Positions 1 to 10,268 of a stretch of DNA of 10,268 bases are shown here, in pieces. The stretch spans positions 1-10,268 of IMG/VR virus record IMGVR_UViG_2563366845_000009; one strand, given 5' to 3'. Below the pieces are notes generated by a model that saw only the letters and a list, made by a program, of their open reading frames with translations, did not search any database and was not told the origin of the DNA. The translations under genes were made by a program, and so were the position numbers. How positions within the stretch are numbered: position 1 is the stretch's first letter; the number at the start of each line of letters is the position of its first letter. This DNA is from a virus (lineage: Duplodnaviria > Heunggongvirae > Uroviricota > Caudoviricetes).

Positions 1-1242
1 ATGGCACGAAAAACCACCCCACTAACTATTACGGAGATCAAAAACGCACGACCAGGGGAAAAGGAATACACCCTGCAGGATGGCGGAGGATTATTTCTTC
101 TGGTGAAACCCTCCGGATCAAAAATCTGGCGTTTTACGTACTACCGCCCGGCAGATAAAAAACGGACTATCATCAGCCTCGGATCGCTGAATGATGTTTC
201 CCTGTCCGATGCCAGAGAACGACGGAATGAATACAGGTCACTCATAGCGAAGGGAGTTGACCCACAGGACCACGAACGCCGGAAACGTGAAGCAGAGAGT
301 CGGAAAAAGGGCAACACGTTCGAAAAAGTTGCCTCGGACTGGTACGAGATGAAAAAAGGCCAGAATCTGGCTTACAACACGATTAAGGATATCTGGCGAT
401 CCCTGGAAAAATACGTATTCCCGTACATCGGAAACACGCCAATAGATACCCTCACAGCTCGCCGCTTTGTTGAGATACTCACACCCATTAAAGCACGCGG
501 CAACCTGGAAACCCTGAAACGCGTTTTACAACGCATCAATGAAGTGATGGATTTTGCTGCCAACAGTGGGCTGATTGACATCAACACCGCCGCGAACGTC
601 CGCAAGGCATTCCCCTCACCCACCAAAAAGCACATGCCAACCATCCGACCGGAACAGCTACCGCAGCTAATGCACGATTTATCGGTCGCCAGCATAGAAC
701 GGCAAACCAGATTGCTGATTGAGTGGCAACTGCTGACCGTAGCACGCCCAGCCGAAGCAGCCGCCGCACGCTGGGAAGAAATAGATCTCGATGCCGAAAC
801 ATGGACGATTCCAGCCGGACGCATGAAGATGCGCCGTGACCACGTGATCCCCCTTTGCGGTCAGGCTATGGCTGTACTGGAAACCATGAAGCCAATCAGC
901 GCACACAGGGAACACGTTTTTCCCAGCCTTAAAAACCCGATGCTGCCAATGAGCAGCCAGACCGCTAACGCCGCATTGCGCCGGATGGGTTACGCTGGTG
1001 TGCTGGTGTCTCACGGATTACGCGCCATATTCAGTACAGCAGCGAACGAGGAAGGATTCGAGCCGGACGTAATCGAGGCCGCACTCGCACACGTGGACAC
1101 AAACGAGGTAAGGCGAGCATATAACCGAAGTAACTACCTGGAAAAGCGCGTGGTGCTTATGCGCTGGTGGGGGGAATTTGTAGAGGCCGCAGCTACCGGA
1201 GTGACCATAGCCAGTGGTAAAAGGGGTATCCGTGCCGTGTAA
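1..1242 (+). CDS. int: Site-specific tyrosine recombinase, P4-type integrase family (N-terminal arm-binding domain plus C-terminal catalytic domain)
   Basis: 413-aa ORF with stop at 1240-1242. N-terminus (KNARPGEKEYTLQDGGGLFLLVKPSGSKIWRFTY) is typical of the P4-integrase N-terminal domain; C-terminus has the HGLRA box and a conserved Tyr region (RRAYNRSNYLEKR). No homology search was run. Confidence 0.93.
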   Translation: MARKTTPLTITEIKNARPGEKEYTLQDGGGLFLLVKPSGSKIWRFTYYRPADKKRTIISLGSLNDVSLSDARERRNEYRSLIAKGVDPQDHERRKREAESRKKGNTFEKVASDWYEMKKGQNLAYNTIKDIWRSLEKYVFPYIGNTPIDTLTARRFVEILTPIKARGNLETLKRVLQRINEVMDFAANSGLIDINTAANVRKAFPSPTKKHMPTIRPEQLPQLMHDLSVASIERQTRLLIEWQLLTVARPAEAAAARWEEIDLDAETWTIPAGRMKMRRDHVIPLCGQAMAVLETMKPISAHREHVFPSLKNPMLPMSSQTANAALRRMGYAGVLVSHGLRAIFSTAANEEGFEPDVIEAALAHVDTNEVRRAYNRSNYLEKRVVLMRWWGEFVEAAATGVTIASGKRGIRAV

Positions 1243-1978: not shown

Positions 1979-2260
1979 TGGTGTGAGGCGTAACGCGATG
2001 AACATAACAAAAAGCGCCCCGTTGCCGGAGCGCCCTTGCGAACAATTAACCTGCTGCGAAAAAAATGGATCAGTGCAGGGGAATTATATCAACCGTGTGG
2101 CGAAGCGCCACAATTGCCGGATAACAGGCAAAGAAAAGGCCACCAGTCACGGCGGCCCTGCGACACAAATTTCGCGTTATCCCCAACGCATGAGCATCGC
2201 CAACAATGCCACATTTGCGGCTGGTGGGCAATGTGATCAGTGTGCTGGCTTGCTGGTGGG

Positions 2261-2440
2261 CTATTCCTGCTCTTTGGCTTTGCGCCGCTGGCGGCGTTTG
2301 ATCTCGCCTTGCATTGACGCAATGATGAATTGTGATGTGCTTTCGCCTGATTCTTTCACTGATTCCATGGCGTTTACTATTTCGTGTGGTACACGAGCCT
2401 TTAGAGCTTGTGATTTTGCGTTTTTTGTACCCGTTGCCAT
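2261..2440 (-). CDS. Small ribbon-helix-helix (Arc/MetJ/CopG-like) DNA-binding protein, putative repressor
   Basis: Internal ATG of the 120-aa minus ORF at 2438-2440, preceded by GAGGAA (6-nt spacer); 59 aa, MATGTKNAKSQALKARVPHEIVNAMESVKESGESTSQFIIASMQGEIKRRQRRKAKEQE. Pattern is beta-strand (LKARVP), helix A, G-x-S turn (SGEST), helix B, then a basic tail. Transcribed divergently from the promoter at 2502-2541. Confidence 0.55.
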   Translation of the reverse strand: MATGTKNAKSQALKARVPHEIVNAMESVKESGESTSQFIIASMQGEIKRRQRRKAKEQE

Positions 2441-2501
2441 TTCTATTCCTCTGGTGGATTGGTGGGGGACAGTATACACAGAAAAAGCACAAATAAAACT
2501 C

Positions 2502-2541
2502 TTGACGTGGGCCACACCTAAAACATATAGTGGGCCACACC
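2502..2541 (+). promoter_or_regulatory. Candidate sigma70 promoter (TTGACG-N18-TATAGT) overlapped by two direct repeats of GTGGGCCACACC (putative operator)
   Basis: -35 TTGACG 2502-2507; -10 TATAGT 2526-2531; exact 12-bp repeats at 2507-2518 and 2530-2541 (23 bp centre to centre), each containing a GTGG..CCAC half-palindrome. Sits between the divergent RHH gene and the downstream + strand gene block. Confidence 0.45.
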
Positions 2542-2639
2542 TTGAAATTATCAAGGCGCATAAATGCAAAGCCCCGCAAGTGTCGTTACCACTCGCAGGG
2601 CTTCTAACCACCAACGATAGCAACGGTATCGAGGTAGCT

Positions 2640-3179
2640 ATGTTAAATCATACCACACACCCGCAAGGGTGGGACTCGCACAACCTGAATAAAGCGGGTA
2701 TGAAAAACCTGTTGATCGCCACTGCCAGCCAGGGCTATGATTTACCCGCACCAGCAAAATCTGGTGCCGGGATTGGCGTCCTGGTATTTAACGAAGCGCA
2801 CAACACGCGCCCTGCGTGTTTTTTTGTGCCGGATAGTCACACCTTATCAATGGTGGGCTGTATGGGGGCGGAGCAATCCGCGCCGGGTTCTTCGTTAACC
2901 GGTTACGCCAACCCTGTACAGTCCACCGCCAGCGAAATTGGCGTTTCCTGCGGTGGGTTTATTAAACCTAACGAAGAGGCTGCCAACATGGCTACTACCC
3001 CTACCCTTATACATTCCCAAACTGCCTTTATCTGGCGCTTTATCATCTTTGGCGCGTCAGAATCTCAAATCATCCACGTGACCGCCTGGACAGAACGCGA
3101 AGCGCGTAACCATTGCCCGTCCGGTTGTGTCGCTGTATTCGCCGCCCGTATTCGTCAGGAGGTGCGCCATGTGCAATAA
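2640..3179 (+). CDS. Hypothetical protein (179 aa), first gene downstream of the putative operator-controlled promoter
   Basis: ATG 2640 preceded by GAGG (5-nt spacer), in frame with the long 1983-3179 ORF whose 5' portion overlaps the antisense RHH gene and the promoter; typical coding composition; no recognisable motif. Alternative start at ATG 2700. Confidence 0.45.
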   Translation: MLNHTTHPQGWDSHNLNKAGMKNLLIATASQGYDLPAPAKSGAGIGVLVFNEAHNTRPACFFVPDSHTLSMVGCMGAEQSAPGSSLTGYANPVQSTASEIGVSCGGFIKPNEEAANMATTPTLIHSQTAFIWRFIIFGASESQIIHVTAWTEREARNHCPSGCVAVFAARIRQEVRHVQ

Positions 3180-3429
3180 CACCCGTCCGGATGCAACCAC
3201 CGAAGCTATCAAAACGCTGATGGATGCGCTGATTGATATTTCTGTTATCGCAGACAAAGCGCATAAGCACGCCACCACTGAAACAGAATATGCCGGGGCT
3301 TTCGTTCCTCACTCACTGGCTGTAATGCAACTTAGTGCTGATATGGCGCTGAATGAGGCTAAAGCCATCCTGATTGCTGATTGTGAAAATGGGGGGGGGT
3401 TATGCGTGATGATCGTTTTAATTCCCTGA
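3169..3429 (+). CDS. Hypothetical small protein (86 aa)
   Basis: Strong AGGAGG (3157-3162) 6 nt upstream of ATG 3169; overlaps the stop of the upstream gene (coupled). Its 3' end contains a G9 homopolymer (3391-3399). Confidence 0.5.
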   Translation: MCNNTRPDATTEAIKTLMDALIDISVIADKAHKHATTETEYAGAFVPHSLAVMQLSADMALNEAKAILIADCENGGGLCVMIVLIP

Positions 3430-3623
3430 AACAGGAATTTTCCGGCGTTCCTGATGATGCGGCTGATGCGCTTTCGTCAATATCTGAAATTATGCGGGTG
3501 GCTTTTTTCTTTCTTTGCACTGATGAGCACAGAGATACAGGGCTAAATATTCTTGATATTGCCGCTAACTATGCTGATTTCGTGACAGAAGCTGTTTTAA
3601 GAAAAACGACGGACGGGGATTAA
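3402..3623 (+). CDS. Hypothetical small protein (73 aa)
   Basis: ATG 3402 lies immediately after the G9 tract (G-rich ribosome-binding site); overlaps the previous ORF by 28 nt in the -1 frame; stop TAA 3621-3623. Confidence 0.45.
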   Translation: MRDDRFNSLKQEFSGVPDDAADALSSISEIMRVAFFFLCTDEHRDTGLNILDIAANYADFVTEAVLRKTTDGD

Positions 3624-3624
3624 T

Positions 3625-3858
3625 ATGCGTGATATTTACCACGAAACAATAGACCGCGCATTTCTTGCACTTTCTCACAGTGAAAGCATGATGGAAATAT
3701 TGCGCATATGGCTTGAAACACTTGGCGACAATGAACGCGACAAACAAAAATCAAGAATTGCCACGGCATTAATAACGCTTCTTGAGCCTGTAATAATGGA
3801 GCTACAAGAAATAGACCTATTGCACGACAGATATAAAGAACAGCACACCGGAGAATAA
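3625..3858 (+). CDS. Hypothetical small protein (77 aa)
   Basis: ATG 3625 is 1 nt after the previous stop, GGGGA 5 nt upstream; acidic/helical composition. Confidence 0.5.
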   Translation: MRDIYHETIDRAFLALSHSESMMEILRIWLETLGDNERDKQKSRIATALITLLEPVIMELQEIDLLHDRYKEQHTGE

Positions 3859-3863
3859 AAATA

Positions 3864-4163
3864 ATGAAACTTAAATATTCTGGCTTTACTGCCAGCGGCC
3901 CCGCTCGGCCTGAAATCCGCCCCGGCGATATTTTCAAAGATAAATACGGCGGCACTGTAACGATTAAAAGCGTGGCGGGACGGTGTGTTACTTACCGCCG
4001 TGATGGGTACGGCTATGACTGCGTGATGCCTGTTTATCAGTTCCGGCGTGATTTTTCTCTGGTACAGAACGCAACACGCGGTAAGCCCACCAGCAGGGAA
4101 AAAGCACGGGAAAATATTAAGAAAATAAAAAGCATGCTCAGCGCATCCAGAGGTAAAAAATGA
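3864..4163 (+). CDS. Hypothetical small basic protein (99 aa)
   Basis: ATG 3864 with GGAG upstream; stop TGA 4161-4163 overlaps the helicase ATG (ATGA coupling). Basic C-terminal tail. Possibly related to small proteins found upstream of replication genes in enterobacterial islands, but not verifiable here. Confidence 0.5.
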   Translation: MKLKYSGFTASGPARPEIRPGDIFKDKYGGTVTIKSVAGRCVTYRRDGYGYDCVMPVYQFRRDFSLVQNATRGKPTSREKARENIKKIKSMLSASRGKK

Positions 4164-5566
4164 AACTGGCACCGAACGTAAAACTGTTACCGAAAGATAA
4201 ACACACTGAGGCGGTTATTTTTGCGGGTGATAATGCTCACTCCTTTGCAGAACATTACATGATTGCACAGGCCAAAAAAGCAGGCGATCCCATCCCTCCG
4301 GTTTACCTGGGCCGTTATCAGTTAAGCGAACTGGACAATTTACAGATTGTTGATGAAGGACGATACAGAGCAAAGGTCATACGCGCCGGAAACCTGGACG
4401 ATATGCAGATGCTGACCATTGCCACCAAACTGGCGATCGCAGGTGTCCAGGAAGCACGGTTACTTTCAGAGAATTTCGAACTGCTGGAGGACTGGAGCGA
4501 GCAACTACCGCGGCTTAAAGAAACCTGGGAACGCGGGGAAAGTCTGGTCATGAATGGTGGAAAGCGAAAAATCACACTTCCCATCTCATGGGGTTCTGAG
4601 GGATTCGACGCGCAGCAAAGCTACGTAATTAAGGGGCTTATTCCGGCTGAGTCATTATGCAGCACCTACGGGGCCAGCGGTTCTTATAAATCGTTCCTGG
4701 CTATTTCCTGGTCGTGCCATGTTGCCACAGGTATGGCATGGGGAGGCCGCAGGGTAAGTAAGGGCGCTGTTATCTATATCGCTGGCGAAGGCAGTATGGG
4801 CGTAAAACGCCGCGTTAAGGCGTGGGAGATAACCCATGACAAGGTGGTTACAGATTTGTGCATCGTTAACGCGCCTGTCTTCCCCGCATCGCCTGACTAT
4901 GTGGAGCAGGTTATCAGGACTGCCGGACTTGTTAAGAGCAGAACGGGCGAAAATGTGCGGCTGATTGTGATCGACACGCTGGCCCGTTGCTTTGGTGGAA
5001 ATGATGAAAATGATTCCCGCGATATGGGCGCATTTATCCAGGGGTGTGACGCGATAAAGCAGGCCACAGGGGCCACGGTGCTGGTGGTTCACCATTCCGG
5101 CAAGGATGAAACAAAGGGGGCGCGCGGTTCCAGCGCATTCCGTGCCGCGCTTGATGCAGAGTACCGAATCAGCCGGGAAAATTCAGAGGTTACAGCACTG
5201 GTGGCGGCGTGTACGAAGATGAAGGACGCAGAGGAGCCAAAAGAGAGTGCATACGATCTTAAAAGCGTGGAGGTGTTCACCGATACAGATGGCGAAGAGA
5301 TTGTGTCCATGGTGGTGATTGACGTTCCCCGCGCCCCTGCTGAACTGGAGCGCATAGAGGAGGCCGGGAACAAGACGGAAAATCACACGGCTTTATGGGG
5401 TTGTATCCGGTCGCGTATACAGCATGGTGATAAATGTACGATCCCGCTGCTACGTGATGACATGAAAAAGCTGGGATATGACACAAAACACCTTAAACGA
5501 TGGTTAGCCAAACTGGAAAAAGACGGCGTGATTTGCGTCGATGGGGATGATGTTCACCCACTGTAA
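4160..5566 (+). CDS. Replicative helicase, RepA / AAA_25 (RecA-like, DnaB-superfamily) ATPase
   Basis: 468 aa; Walker A-like GASGSYKS, Walker B-like hydrophobic stretch ending in Asp (RLIVIDTLARCF), and the VLVVHHSGKD motif typical of RepA-type helicases; GAGG ribosome-binding site 6 nt upstream; followed immediately by the iteron array. Confidence 0.82.
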   Translation: MKLAPNVKLLPKDKHTEAVIFAGDNAHSFAEHYMIAQAKKAGDPIPPVYLGRYQLSELDNLQIVDEGRYRAKVIRAGNLDDMQMLTIATKLAIAGVQEARLLSENFELLEDWSEQLPRLKETWERGESLVMNGGKRKITLPISWGSEGFDAQQSYVIKGLIPAESLCSTYGASGSYKSFLAISWSCHVATGMAWGGRRVSKGAVIYIAGEGSMGVKRRVKAWEITHDKVVTDLCIVNAPVFPASPDYVEQVIRTAGLVKSRTGENVRLIVIDTLARCFGGNDENDSRDMGAFIQGCDAIKQATGATVLVVHHSGKDETKGARGSSAFRAALDAEYRISRENSEVTALVAACTKMKDAEEPKESAYDLKSVEVFTDTDGEEIVSMVVIDVPRAPAELERIEEAGNKTENHTALWGCIRSRIQHGDKCTIPLLRDDMKKLGYDTKHLKRWLAKLEKDGVICVDGDDVHPL

Positions 5567-5766
5567 AAAGTGGGCGTTAAAAGTGGGAGTAGTGGGTAAT
5601 TTAACTGGAATTTAACAAAATCGCCCACTTTCCCACGTGTATACATCCCAAAAAGTGGGCACTAAAAAAATACTTATGAAACAGTACGATATAAAACCAC
5701 AAAATCCCAGGTGGGACGAAGTGGGAAACCATGAAAAGTGGGCAGAAAAAGTGGGCACAGGTGGGC
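5565..5766 (+). repeat. Iteron-type replication origin: nine direct copies of (A)AAGTGGGC in two clusters, two inverted copies, and an AT-rich spacer
   Basis: GTGGG cores on + at 5570, 5583, 5592, 5656, 5711, 5721, 5738, 5751, 5761; inverted CCCAC at 5624-5628 and 5632-5636; AT-rich 5598-5620 (AATTTAAC twice) and 5661-5705; immediately 3' of the helicase gene. Confidence 0.7.
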
Positions 5767-6456: not shown

Positions 6457-6478
6457 CCGGGATTTTCCCGGTTTTTTT
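6457..6478 (+). terminator. Rho-independent terminator downstream of ssb
   Basis: Stem CCGGG(A)/(T)CCCGG (6457-6471) followed by seven T (6472-6478). Confidence 0.6.
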
Positions 6479-6527
6479 ACGGGTCCTCCCGGTGGAGTGG
6501 CCTTACCACGGGGCGGGAGCGGCGCGG
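6472..6527 (+). other. cos-like site, copy A (cosQ/cosN-like core with a divergent right half)
   Basis: 6472-6516 (TTTTTTTACGGGTCCTCCCGGTGGAGTGGCCTTACCACGGGGCGG) is identical to 9009-9053; the next 11 nt match copy B at 8 of 11. Contains dyad CCCGGTGG-N10-CCACGGGG and the ACG|GGGCGG junction resembling the lambda cosN nick site. Confidence 0.5.
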
Positions 6528-6740
6528 AAAAAGGCTGGTTTTTGCATTTTCATGGCGGCGGCAGCATGTGTGATAATTTATTGATAATTAAAAAATATTT
6601 CCGTTTTCACCTGTACAATATTTTTTTCGCCCTGTCATTAGACCAGTTTGTAATTAATTGAAATATATAAATAAATCCGTTTTTCACCTGCCAGGTGGAG
6701 TTGCCAGTGTCAAAACGTGTTCAGATGGCGGGATATTTAT

Positions 6741-8992: not shown

Positions 8993-9015
8993 GGCGGCGA
9001 TAGCCGCCTTTTTTT
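8993..9015 (+). terminator. Rho-independent terminator downstream of the capsid gene
   Basis: GGCGGC-GATA-GCCGCC perfect 6-bp stem (8993-9008) followed by seven T (9009-9015); the T-run is also the first 7 nt of the cos repeat. Confidence 0.6.
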
Positions 9016-9090
9016 ACGGGTCCTCCCGGTGGAGTGGCCTTACCACGGGGCGGCAGACGCGCGGGTTTTCGCTATTTATGAGCCTTTTTC
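9009..9090 (+). other. Lambda-like cos site, copy B (cosQ/cosN plus proximal cosB), directly upstream of the small terminase gene
   Basis: Window CCACG|GGGCGGCAGACG|CGCGGGTTTTCGCTATTTATGA (9043-9082) compared with the lambda left end as recalled from memory (GGGCGGCGACCT CGCGGGTTTTCGCTATTTATGA): predicted 12-nt cohesive end GGGCGGCAGACG (9048-9059), followed by a 22-nt match to lambda. Upstream TACGGGTCCT matches the lambda right-end motif. Confidence 0.65.
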
Positions 9091-9776: not shown

Positions 9777-9896
9777 CAGCGTTGCGCTGGTGGGAGTTAT
9801 GCGTCAGTGATGAACAAAAAATAATCGAAATCGACACCGAAAAATAAAACATCAAGTCATATCAATATATTGCATTGGTGGTGATGACGAATAAAA

Positions 9897-10268
9897 ATGC
9901 AAAAACTAGCCTTTTTCCGCGATGCTCCCGCCCCGTGGCAGGGCACCCCACCAGGAGGACCCGCCATCACTATGGAGGCCATGACCATGACCGAGACCGA
10001 AGCGCTCGGGATAATCCGCAGTATTACCGGAATCAGCCAGCAGGCTGACGAACAGGCCACGCAGCCGGATACAGTCACCGCTGAAAATTACGCGCGTGTG
10101 ATGGCTGAGGTGATGCGCCGTGACGGTATCGAGCTTAATGGCGTGGATATACGCAACATACGCACCAGAGTTCTGGAGATGTTGTCGTACCGTCGCCGCG
10201 TGCAGATGTACCAGGAGAAAGAAAAAATTACGTACCAGTGGAAGAAGCCGGAGCGGTTACGGCGATAA
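9897..10268 (+). CDS. Hypothetical protein (123 aa from ATG 9897; alternative 98-aa start at ATG 9972)
   Basis: Open frame ending at TAA 10266-10268; ATG 9897 has no Shine-Dalgarno; the in-frame ATG 9972 has AGGAGG (9953-9958) but a long 13-nt spacer. No recognisable motif. Confidence 0.4.
   Translation: MQKLAFFRDAPAPWQGTPPGGPAITMEAMTMTETEALGIIRSITGISQQADEQATQPDTVTAENYARVMAEVMRRDGIELNGVDIRNIRTRVLEMLSYRRRVQMYQEKEKITYQWKKPERLRR

Follow-up and report, generated by a model that had tools for sequence, protein, structure and literature searches.

The run of nine G residues at the junction of two small overlapping ORFs in the window (the whole 10,268-nucleotide stretch of DNA analyzed here) is probably a slippage-prone hotspot, located at the boundary of two small genes that were originally separate and translationally coupled. 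The length of the run is polymorphic among related islands, and single-base changes in it alternately split and fuse the two coding regions. The locus is a hypermutable glycine-codon G-run, and putative Shine–Dalgarno sequence, that gives recurrent fusion and fission. A tolerated mutational hotspot seems to describe it better than a single gene in disguise, programmed frameshifting, or an established switch.

The first-pass annotation had reported nine consecutive G's at the overlap of two ORFs in different frames, and both ORFs and the run are confirmed (Table 1). ORF1 reads the tract as GGG GGG GGG and in this G9 state carries the tail ...ENGGG-LCVMIVLIP, whereas its G8 form has 79 aa and ends ...ENGGGYA. 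ORF2 lies in the −1 frame relative to ORF1, with its ATG two bases past the run, which thus occupies the stretch 3–11 nt upstream of that ATG. The TGA inside ATGCGTGA is out of the ORF1 frame in this G9 window. A tenth G or a −1 slip produces ...ADCENGGGVMRDDRF..., exactly the junction that had been predicted; the fusion, however, has 151 aa and not the 160 aa or so given at the time. The run is the sole G/C run longer than six in the window. Dinucleotide-preserving shuffles give an expectation of 0.10 such runs per window, with at least one run in 11 of 200 shuffles, and the run is only mildly unusual for one window. It is not a matter of chance, because more than 140 related loci have it at the corresponding position.

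Table 1. Positions of the features of the window discussed in the text (empty cells, no value given)
Feature	Position	Strand	Remarks
Integrase	1–1242		First island gene
AlpA-type regulator			After the integrase
YlcI/YnfO gene		−	After the AlpA-type regulator
Ash-family remnant			Beside the YlcI/YnfO gene; pseudogene in the RM11911 record
Tandem pair of 22-mers containing GTGGGCCACACCT	2507–2551		23 nt apart; repeat family D6
isrK Hfq-binding sRNA	2748–2824	+	Rfam match, 80 bits, above gathering score
C4 antisense RNA	2846–2933	+	Rfam match, 75 bits, above gathering score
Icd-like gene	2988–3179	+	First gene of the operon, from the annotation of the near-identical RM11911 island
ORF1	3169–3429	+	ATG to TGA, 86 aa, phrog_5146
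G9 homopolymer	3391–3399	+	Gly-Gly-Gly near the ORF1 C terminus; putative ORF2 Shine–Dalgarno sequence
ORF2	3402–3623	+	Own ATG to TAA, 73 aa, phrog_24341
ATGCGTGA	3402–3409	+	ORF2 start; also the ORF1 stop when the tract is G8
TGA	3427–3429	+	Stop codon at which the G9 form of ORF1 ends; 25 nt past the ORF2 ATG
ORF3	3625–3858	+	77 aa, small helical protein, phrog_2196
DUF4222 gene	3864–4163	+
RepA-family helicase	4160–5566	+
SSB			Downstream of the RepA-family helicase
AAAAGTGGGC repeats	5565–5755		Repeat families D3 and D5
GC-rich element, three copies	6472–6553, 9009–9064, 9891–9963		Third copy inverted
ClpP-protease/major-capsid fusion and small terminase (TerS)			Last in the listed gene order

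The window is an Escherichia coli phage-satellite island. This assignment used as criteria an integrase, an AlpA-type regulator, a primase or helicase replication gene, capsid and small-terminase genes, a size of about 10–15 kb, and a position beside a tRNA gene. The integrase, AlpA, RepA helicase, and capsid/TerS genes correspond to the P4-like or capsid-forming PICI type, as does the tRNA neighbor, the RM11911 copy of the island adjoining tRNA-Pro. The G-run sits within the early operon of the island, which comprises icd, the small ORFs, the DUF4222 gene, and the RepA helicase gene. From icd to repA the genes are separated by gaps of 1–5 nt or overlap by 11, 8 (in the G8 relatives), or 4 nt; the Icd-like stop and the ORF1 start overlap by 11 nt, and the gap between the ORF2 stop and the ORF3 start is 1 nt. 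Such tight packing appears to be the layout of a translationally coupled operon. The isrK-like and C4-like matches lie directly upstream of the Icd-like gene, and the order suggests that a P1/P7-type C4–icd immunity arrangement may head the operon that holds the G-run. In the immI region of P1 and P7, icd translation shields downstream transcription from premature termination. A 398-aa GTG-started ORF (1983–3179) is almost certainly not a gene, because the same stretch in RM11911 holds the minus-strand YlcI/YnfO gene, the Ash pseudogene, and the Icd-like gene; in the window itself, the two sRNA matches overlap its span.

The polymorphism of the tract is directly observed. A scan of metagenome, IMG/VR, and genome contigs for the pattern GATTGTGAAAAT-N(4–18)-TTATGCGTGATGATCG yielded 143 loci, of which 53 are on metagenome contigs, 89 are on IMG/VR contigs, and one is in a Shigella flexneri genome. 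The genome contigs, one genome per species, contained the exact junction in S. flexneri only, and spread beyond Escherichia/Shigella was judged through protein homologs only. It had been proposed that tract length be compared across related islands; it ranges from 7 to 12 and so is not invariant at 9. Seven G's are found in 33 loci, eight in 68 (the commonest state), nine in 29, 10 in five, and 11 and 12 in four each, a distribution that is unimodal around 8 and without 3-nt periodicity. Tracts of 7, 10, or 13 fuse ORF1 and ORF2, and tracts of 8, 9, 11, or 12 leave them split. The fused frame makes up 27% of the loci, versus 33% expected without frame selection (p = 0.09), and 23% of unique haplotype-by-tract combinations (p = 0.03). 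The run is pure in 131 of the 143 loci, with the third positions of its glycine codons synonymous, and is interrupted in the other 12 (e.g. GGGGGTGG and GGGGAGGGGGGG).

Hotspot behavior is equally evident. Nine of the 19 identical ±250-nt flank haplotypes with more than one member show multiple tract lengths, and 22 of 61 identical-flank pairs differ in tract, mostly by one base. The tract therefore changes faster than the 500 nt of flank gain one substitution. In E. coli, indels are concentrated in mononucleotide runs (PMC8510543). Four complete genomes that we aligned to the window carry G7, G8, G9, and G10 on otherwise conserved flanks. Roughly 13–18% of complete E. coli genomes, about 1000 in number, carry the locus. 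In a spread sample of complete genomes, with the tract read from the match span, all 14 rows of O157:H7-type identity have a G7 span (the one row checked, FRIK2533, is G7 and is annotated with a 154-aa fused protein). Elsewhere, 11 consecutive rows, the nine O55:H7 genomes among them, have a single span and a single annotation in common. Thus, the tract is not wildly unstable, and the uniformity of clonal lineages argues against very fast switching.

The ancestry of the two halves can be read from distant relatives. When the fusion protein was searched exhaustively against 1.84 billion representative proteins, 48 relatives were found. Distant homologs of ORF1 alone are 72–84 aa long and have C termini without poly-Gly (...ADIQEVGHA, ...ADIKKIQGAHHA, and ...DTGETEINKGVDHA), and distant homologs of ORF2 alone are 75–77 aa long, with a first Met equivalent to window position 3402. 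At three distant loci, the ORF1 homolog and the next gene, which is not always an ORF2 homolog, overlap by 8 nt (ATGCCTAA, ATGCATAA, and ATGCGTAG), each overlap being preceded by GGGGG or GGAGG. At two further loci, ORF2 homologs lie behind unrelated genes, with an overlap of 8 nt (ATGTATGA) or 4 nt (ATGA) and with GGAGGG or AGGAGG upstream. The G8 state (ATGCGTGA, with ...GGGYA before the stop) reproduces this layout exactly. An overlap of upstream stop and downstream start is therefore present in the G8 relatives and at all five distant loci, and in the G9 window the stop falls 25 nt past the ATG. Likewise, the upstream gene has a Shine–Dalgarno-like sequence within its 3′ end, the G-run here and GGGGG, GGAGG, or AGGAGG at the distant loci. 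Stand-alone distant homologs with short stop/start overlaps argue that two coupled genes are ancestral, and two independent genes are thus the original state.

The modules are also independent of each other. Before the tract, ORF1 has either 68 or 74 aa, and ORF2 has either 73 or 77 aa; all four pairings of these variants exist, and in some relatives either module is fused to unrelated partners (P0134 and P0165). Nucleotide diversity is about 0–0.06 within roughly 20–40 nt of the junction versus 0.2–0.5 further out, a valley that is partly ascertainment, as 12 + 16 nt are fixed by the search pattern. The conserved junction covers about 80 nt (window 3360–3440 and the same region of loci L005–L147), with the ORF bodies far less conserved. 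Judged by this pattern, the junction looks like a mosaic-module boundary that may be used for recombination.

These features suggest the following mechanism. The native arrangement would be G8, in which ORF1 ends ...AAT GGG GGG GGT TAT GCG TGA, with its stop overlapping the ORF2 start. The G-run would do double duty, supplying both the C-terminal glycine codons of ORF1 and, as we infer, the Shine–Dalgarno sequence of a translationally coupled ORF2. G's would be gained or lost by replication slippage. With G9, as in this window, the ORF1 stop shifts 25 nt downstream and YA is replaced by LCVMIVLIP, leaving ORF2 untouched; with G7, G10, or G13, the two proteins are joined through a GG, GGG, or GGGG linker. 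All three frames probably persist because the ORF2 start site, with the G-run upstream of it, is always retained, and because no untranslated gap arises, with its possible polarity on the replication genes; the lack of a gap would count in an operon that begins with a C4-type antisense RNA and icd. The fused forms, at 27% of loci, appear to be tolerated, and the extended forms of ORF1 would be as well.

The coding sequences are compatible with such tolerance. ORF2 is full length (73–79 aa) in about 93% of readable loci, whatever the tract length. The pN/pS of both ORFs is 0.29–0.47, alike in the split and fused sets, and indicates purifying selection; these ratios say nothing state-specific on ORF2 expression because the tract flips faster than substitutions accumulate. 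An AF2 model of the fusion consists of two helical modules (helices at 7–37 and 39–73, then at 81–91, 99–116, and 119–148) joined by residues 76–97 with a pLDDT below 50. ORF1 is predicted to be a helical hairpin. The mean pLDDT of the model is 60, too low for a meaningful fold search. The proteins gave only a sub-threshold DUF2922 match in Pfam and no match in sequence searches of NCBIfam, PADLOC, and the PDB. PHROGs has three unannotated families here, one for each ORF (Table 1) and one for the fusion (phrog_2512). A 154-aa fused protein present on 84 contigs (P0090; L166 490–570) has the junction ...ENGGGMRDD... and owes its fused frame to the deletion of a single T that follows a G8 run (GGGGGGGG-T-ATG), so routes to fusion other than the tract exist.

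Several other explanations of the junction have to be considered. The one that survives best, although we regard it as unlikely, is that the G-run is a genuine contingency locus, which selection keeps for heritable stochastic switching that alters satellite behavior, e.g. the interplay with helper phage. Switching would then be among the two-protein, extended-ORF1, and single-chain fused states. Poly-G/C contingency loci in coding regions are known from Neisseria, Haemophilus, Campylobacter, Bordetella, and Mycobacterium (PMC5084427, PMC1891110, PMC11898584). As in those loci, a simple-sequence tract in a coding region, here a G-run of 7–12, sets the frame, its length varies between near-identical sequences, and the presumed mechanism is replication slippage. 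Moreover, the tract is polymorphic on identical flanks, all three frames occur at appreciable frequency, and the run is kept pure in 131 of 143 loci, in haplotypes whose flanking ORFs have a synonymous divergence of 0.17–0.40. This persistence could reflect selection for mutability instead of a Shine–Dalgarno constraint. However, a Shine–Dalgarno role together with glycine coding suffices to account for conservation of the run, and the out-of-frame OFF state that marks contingency loci is absent: no state turns either protein off, as ORF2 retains its own ATG and putative Shine–Dalgarno sequence and is ancestrally separate. The host differs as well, being a mismatch-repair-proficient E. coli whose clonal lineages are uniform (the O157:H7-type and O55:H7 rows above, and the G9 and G10 alleles described below). 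We also looked for heterogeneity within samples, and contigs from one metagenome or genome that differed in tract proved to be different islands. Thus, of the slipped-strand phase-variable switch suggested in the first-pass annotation, variation in length from 7 to 12, also between loci with identical flanks, stands at the population level, but a functional phase-variable switch looks unlikely, as ORF2 keeps its own start, the commonest state is the one “out of frame,” and lineages keep one length.

A related proposal, that the run is a selected, heritable, and reversible fusion/fission toggle that diversifies satellite behavior within an E. coli population, we consider quite unlikely. If true, it would alternate a single chain with a protein pair, or with an ORF1 bearing a hydrophobic tail, and it would work through fusion and fission rather than ON and OFF. 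For an enterobacterium proficient in mismatch repair, simple-sequence phase variation of this sort would be unusual.

It is also conceivable, but improbable, that the native gene encodes the fused chain of about 150 aa and that the G8 and G9 copies, including that of the window, are frameshift-inactivated pseudogenes in decaying islands. Fused proteins of 150–155 aa are abundant and diverse (73–99% identical to the query and falling into more than 100 clusters at 90% identity), the fused form has its own model in phrog_2512, and PGAP labels one O111 G9 copy “frameshifted.” That fused forms are common and stably inherited counts against our preferred reading, and a fused “native” gene is therefore possible for some lineages. 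Nevertheless, split states make up 73% of the 143 loci, with a mode at G8, and all 12 interrupted tracts lie in split frames. In the readable split-state loci, too, ORF2 is full length in about 93%, and among distant homologs each half is a gene of its own, with its own start and without the G-run. In the fused forms, the internal Met is invariant (Met79 in 21 of 21 aligned proteins of 72–100% identity); P0134, which has a different N-terminal domain, has Leu at the equivalent position.

Recoding from the G9 template, by programmed −1 frameshifting on G GGG GGG or by RNA polymerase slippage, could yield some fusion, and we think it highly improbable here. Programmed −1 frameshifting is exemplified by dnaX (A AAA AAG) and by the phage tail chaperones G/GT. 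The junction resembles these in that two ORFs overlap at a formally slippery heptamer and could yield a fused product; read in the ORF1 frame, G GGG GGG fits X XXY YYZ in the zero frame and permits perfect tandem re-pairing in the −1 frame. It is unlike them in lacking a stimulatory element and, among relatives, a fixed heptamer and a conserved frame relation. All three frame relations occur among relatives; the modal G8 would need a +1 shift, and G7 and G10 need none. When the regions 3400–3470 and 3403–3440 were folded and compared with shuffles, no downstream stimulatory structure was found (z = 0.19 and −0.18). The earlier suggestion of programmed frameshifting is thus not supported. As for slippage in transcription, the documented cases for the E. 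coli polymerase involve T runs of at least 7 or longer A runs (PMC6260861). Low-level frameshifting on G-runs is known from the thymidine kinase of herpes simplex virus, where it compensates for indels in a G7 run (PMC5009743). The likeness is that an indel in a G-run alters the frame and that residual slippage may give traces of the other product; the difference is that in the herpesvirus, a virus of eukaryotes, drug selection favored a loss of function, whereas here natural alleles lie at a gene junction and the downstream start is independent. Incidental low-level or trace slippage on G9 is possible, but would not count as programmed.

Least credible of all is that G9 is a homopolymer sequencing or assembly error for a true G10 as in RM11911, for although the window differs from RM11911, RM13745, and RM13752 essentially by one G, the identical 86-aa G9 product is encoded on 51 contigs. 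Those contigs (88 index blocks) come from many independent assemblies, complete genomes as well as Illumina drafts, and one G9 locus among them (L158, GCA_000352525.1) shows no difference from the window in 5566 nt. Over its full length, the window is a 100.0% match to RM11911, RM13752, and RM13745, with a span one base longer; all three are G10 and are annotated with a 151-aa protein, the exact form of which occurs on 37 contigs. The window and the RM11911 island differ by the extra G and one further substitution, which falls in the int-to-RepA stretch. Across the int-to-repA backbone (5566 nt), six G9 and four G10 loci differ by 0–1 SNP besides the tract. The number of contigs and the near-identity of these backbones make G9 a real allele and no one-off read error. 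G7 and G8 versions of the window's own haplotype are absent among the recorded contigs. G9 and G10 are thus two clonally inherited alleles, one slippage event apart. The idea that a sequencing error hides a single gene is consequently not supported, the more so as the distant homologs are separate genes.

The slippage-prone boundary of two putatively coupled genes can be compared with two further kinds of system. In coupled overlapping genes of phages and satellites (ATGnnTGA- or ATGA-type), as in the G8 state and the distant homologs, overlaps are 4 or 8 nt and the first gene contains, within its 3′ end, the Shine–Dalgarno sequence of the second. Our locus is unlike them in that the putative Shine–Dalgarno sequence consists of a long run of G's only, so that the junction is prone to mutation, and in that the ORF1 stop of the window is displaced 25 nt past the ORF2 start. 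It also recalls the fusion/fission pairs known as “Rosetta stone” proteins, which exist separately or as one chain, here through a flexible glycine linker (GG, GGG, or GGGG, encoded by the run). The difference is that interconversion here takes a single-base homopolymer change and has recurred many times within one species. The locus thus illustrates cleanly, in nature, how slippage by a single base can fuse and split genes again and again. We found no description of it in the published literature. Biologically, the locus is of modest interest as long as no effect of tract length on satellite behavior is demonstrated.

The practical value lies in annotation. Annotation by RefSeq/PGAP is inconsistent across loci L164 (O111:NM FWSEC0005), L003, L004, L001, and L165. 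RefSeq gives one protein (150–151 aa) for G7 and G10, proteins of 79 and 73 aa overlapping by 8 nt for G8, and proteins of 86 and 73 aa for G9. G9 itself appears as two hypothetical proteins in one genome and as a “frameshifted” pseudogene in another. Treating tract length as a natural polymorphism of a two-gene junction resolves this inconsistency and the existence of three PHROGs families.

Some additional observations concern the island as a whole. One genome (GCA_900449455.1, UGCS01000002.1) holds two island copies at different chromosomal sites; both are G9 and are identical across the 5566 nt compared. Right after the RepA-helicase gene, AAAAGTGGGC occurs in three to four copies at a spacing of about 84 nt; these repeats are iteron-like, and a satellite replication origin may lie there. 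The GTGGGCCACACCT pair, in the 5′ part of the longest minus-strand ORF with YlcI/YnfO and upstream of the annotated YlcI/YnfO start, may be an operator or binding site. Finally, a GC-rich element of about 55–85 nt that begins with T7 is present in three copies, two direct and one inverted and 95% and about 88% alike, that flank the capsid and small-terminase genes. Spurious ORFs with the common peptide “RVLPVEWPYHGAG” derive from this element, which could be a terminator, a regulatory RNA, or a packaging-related site.
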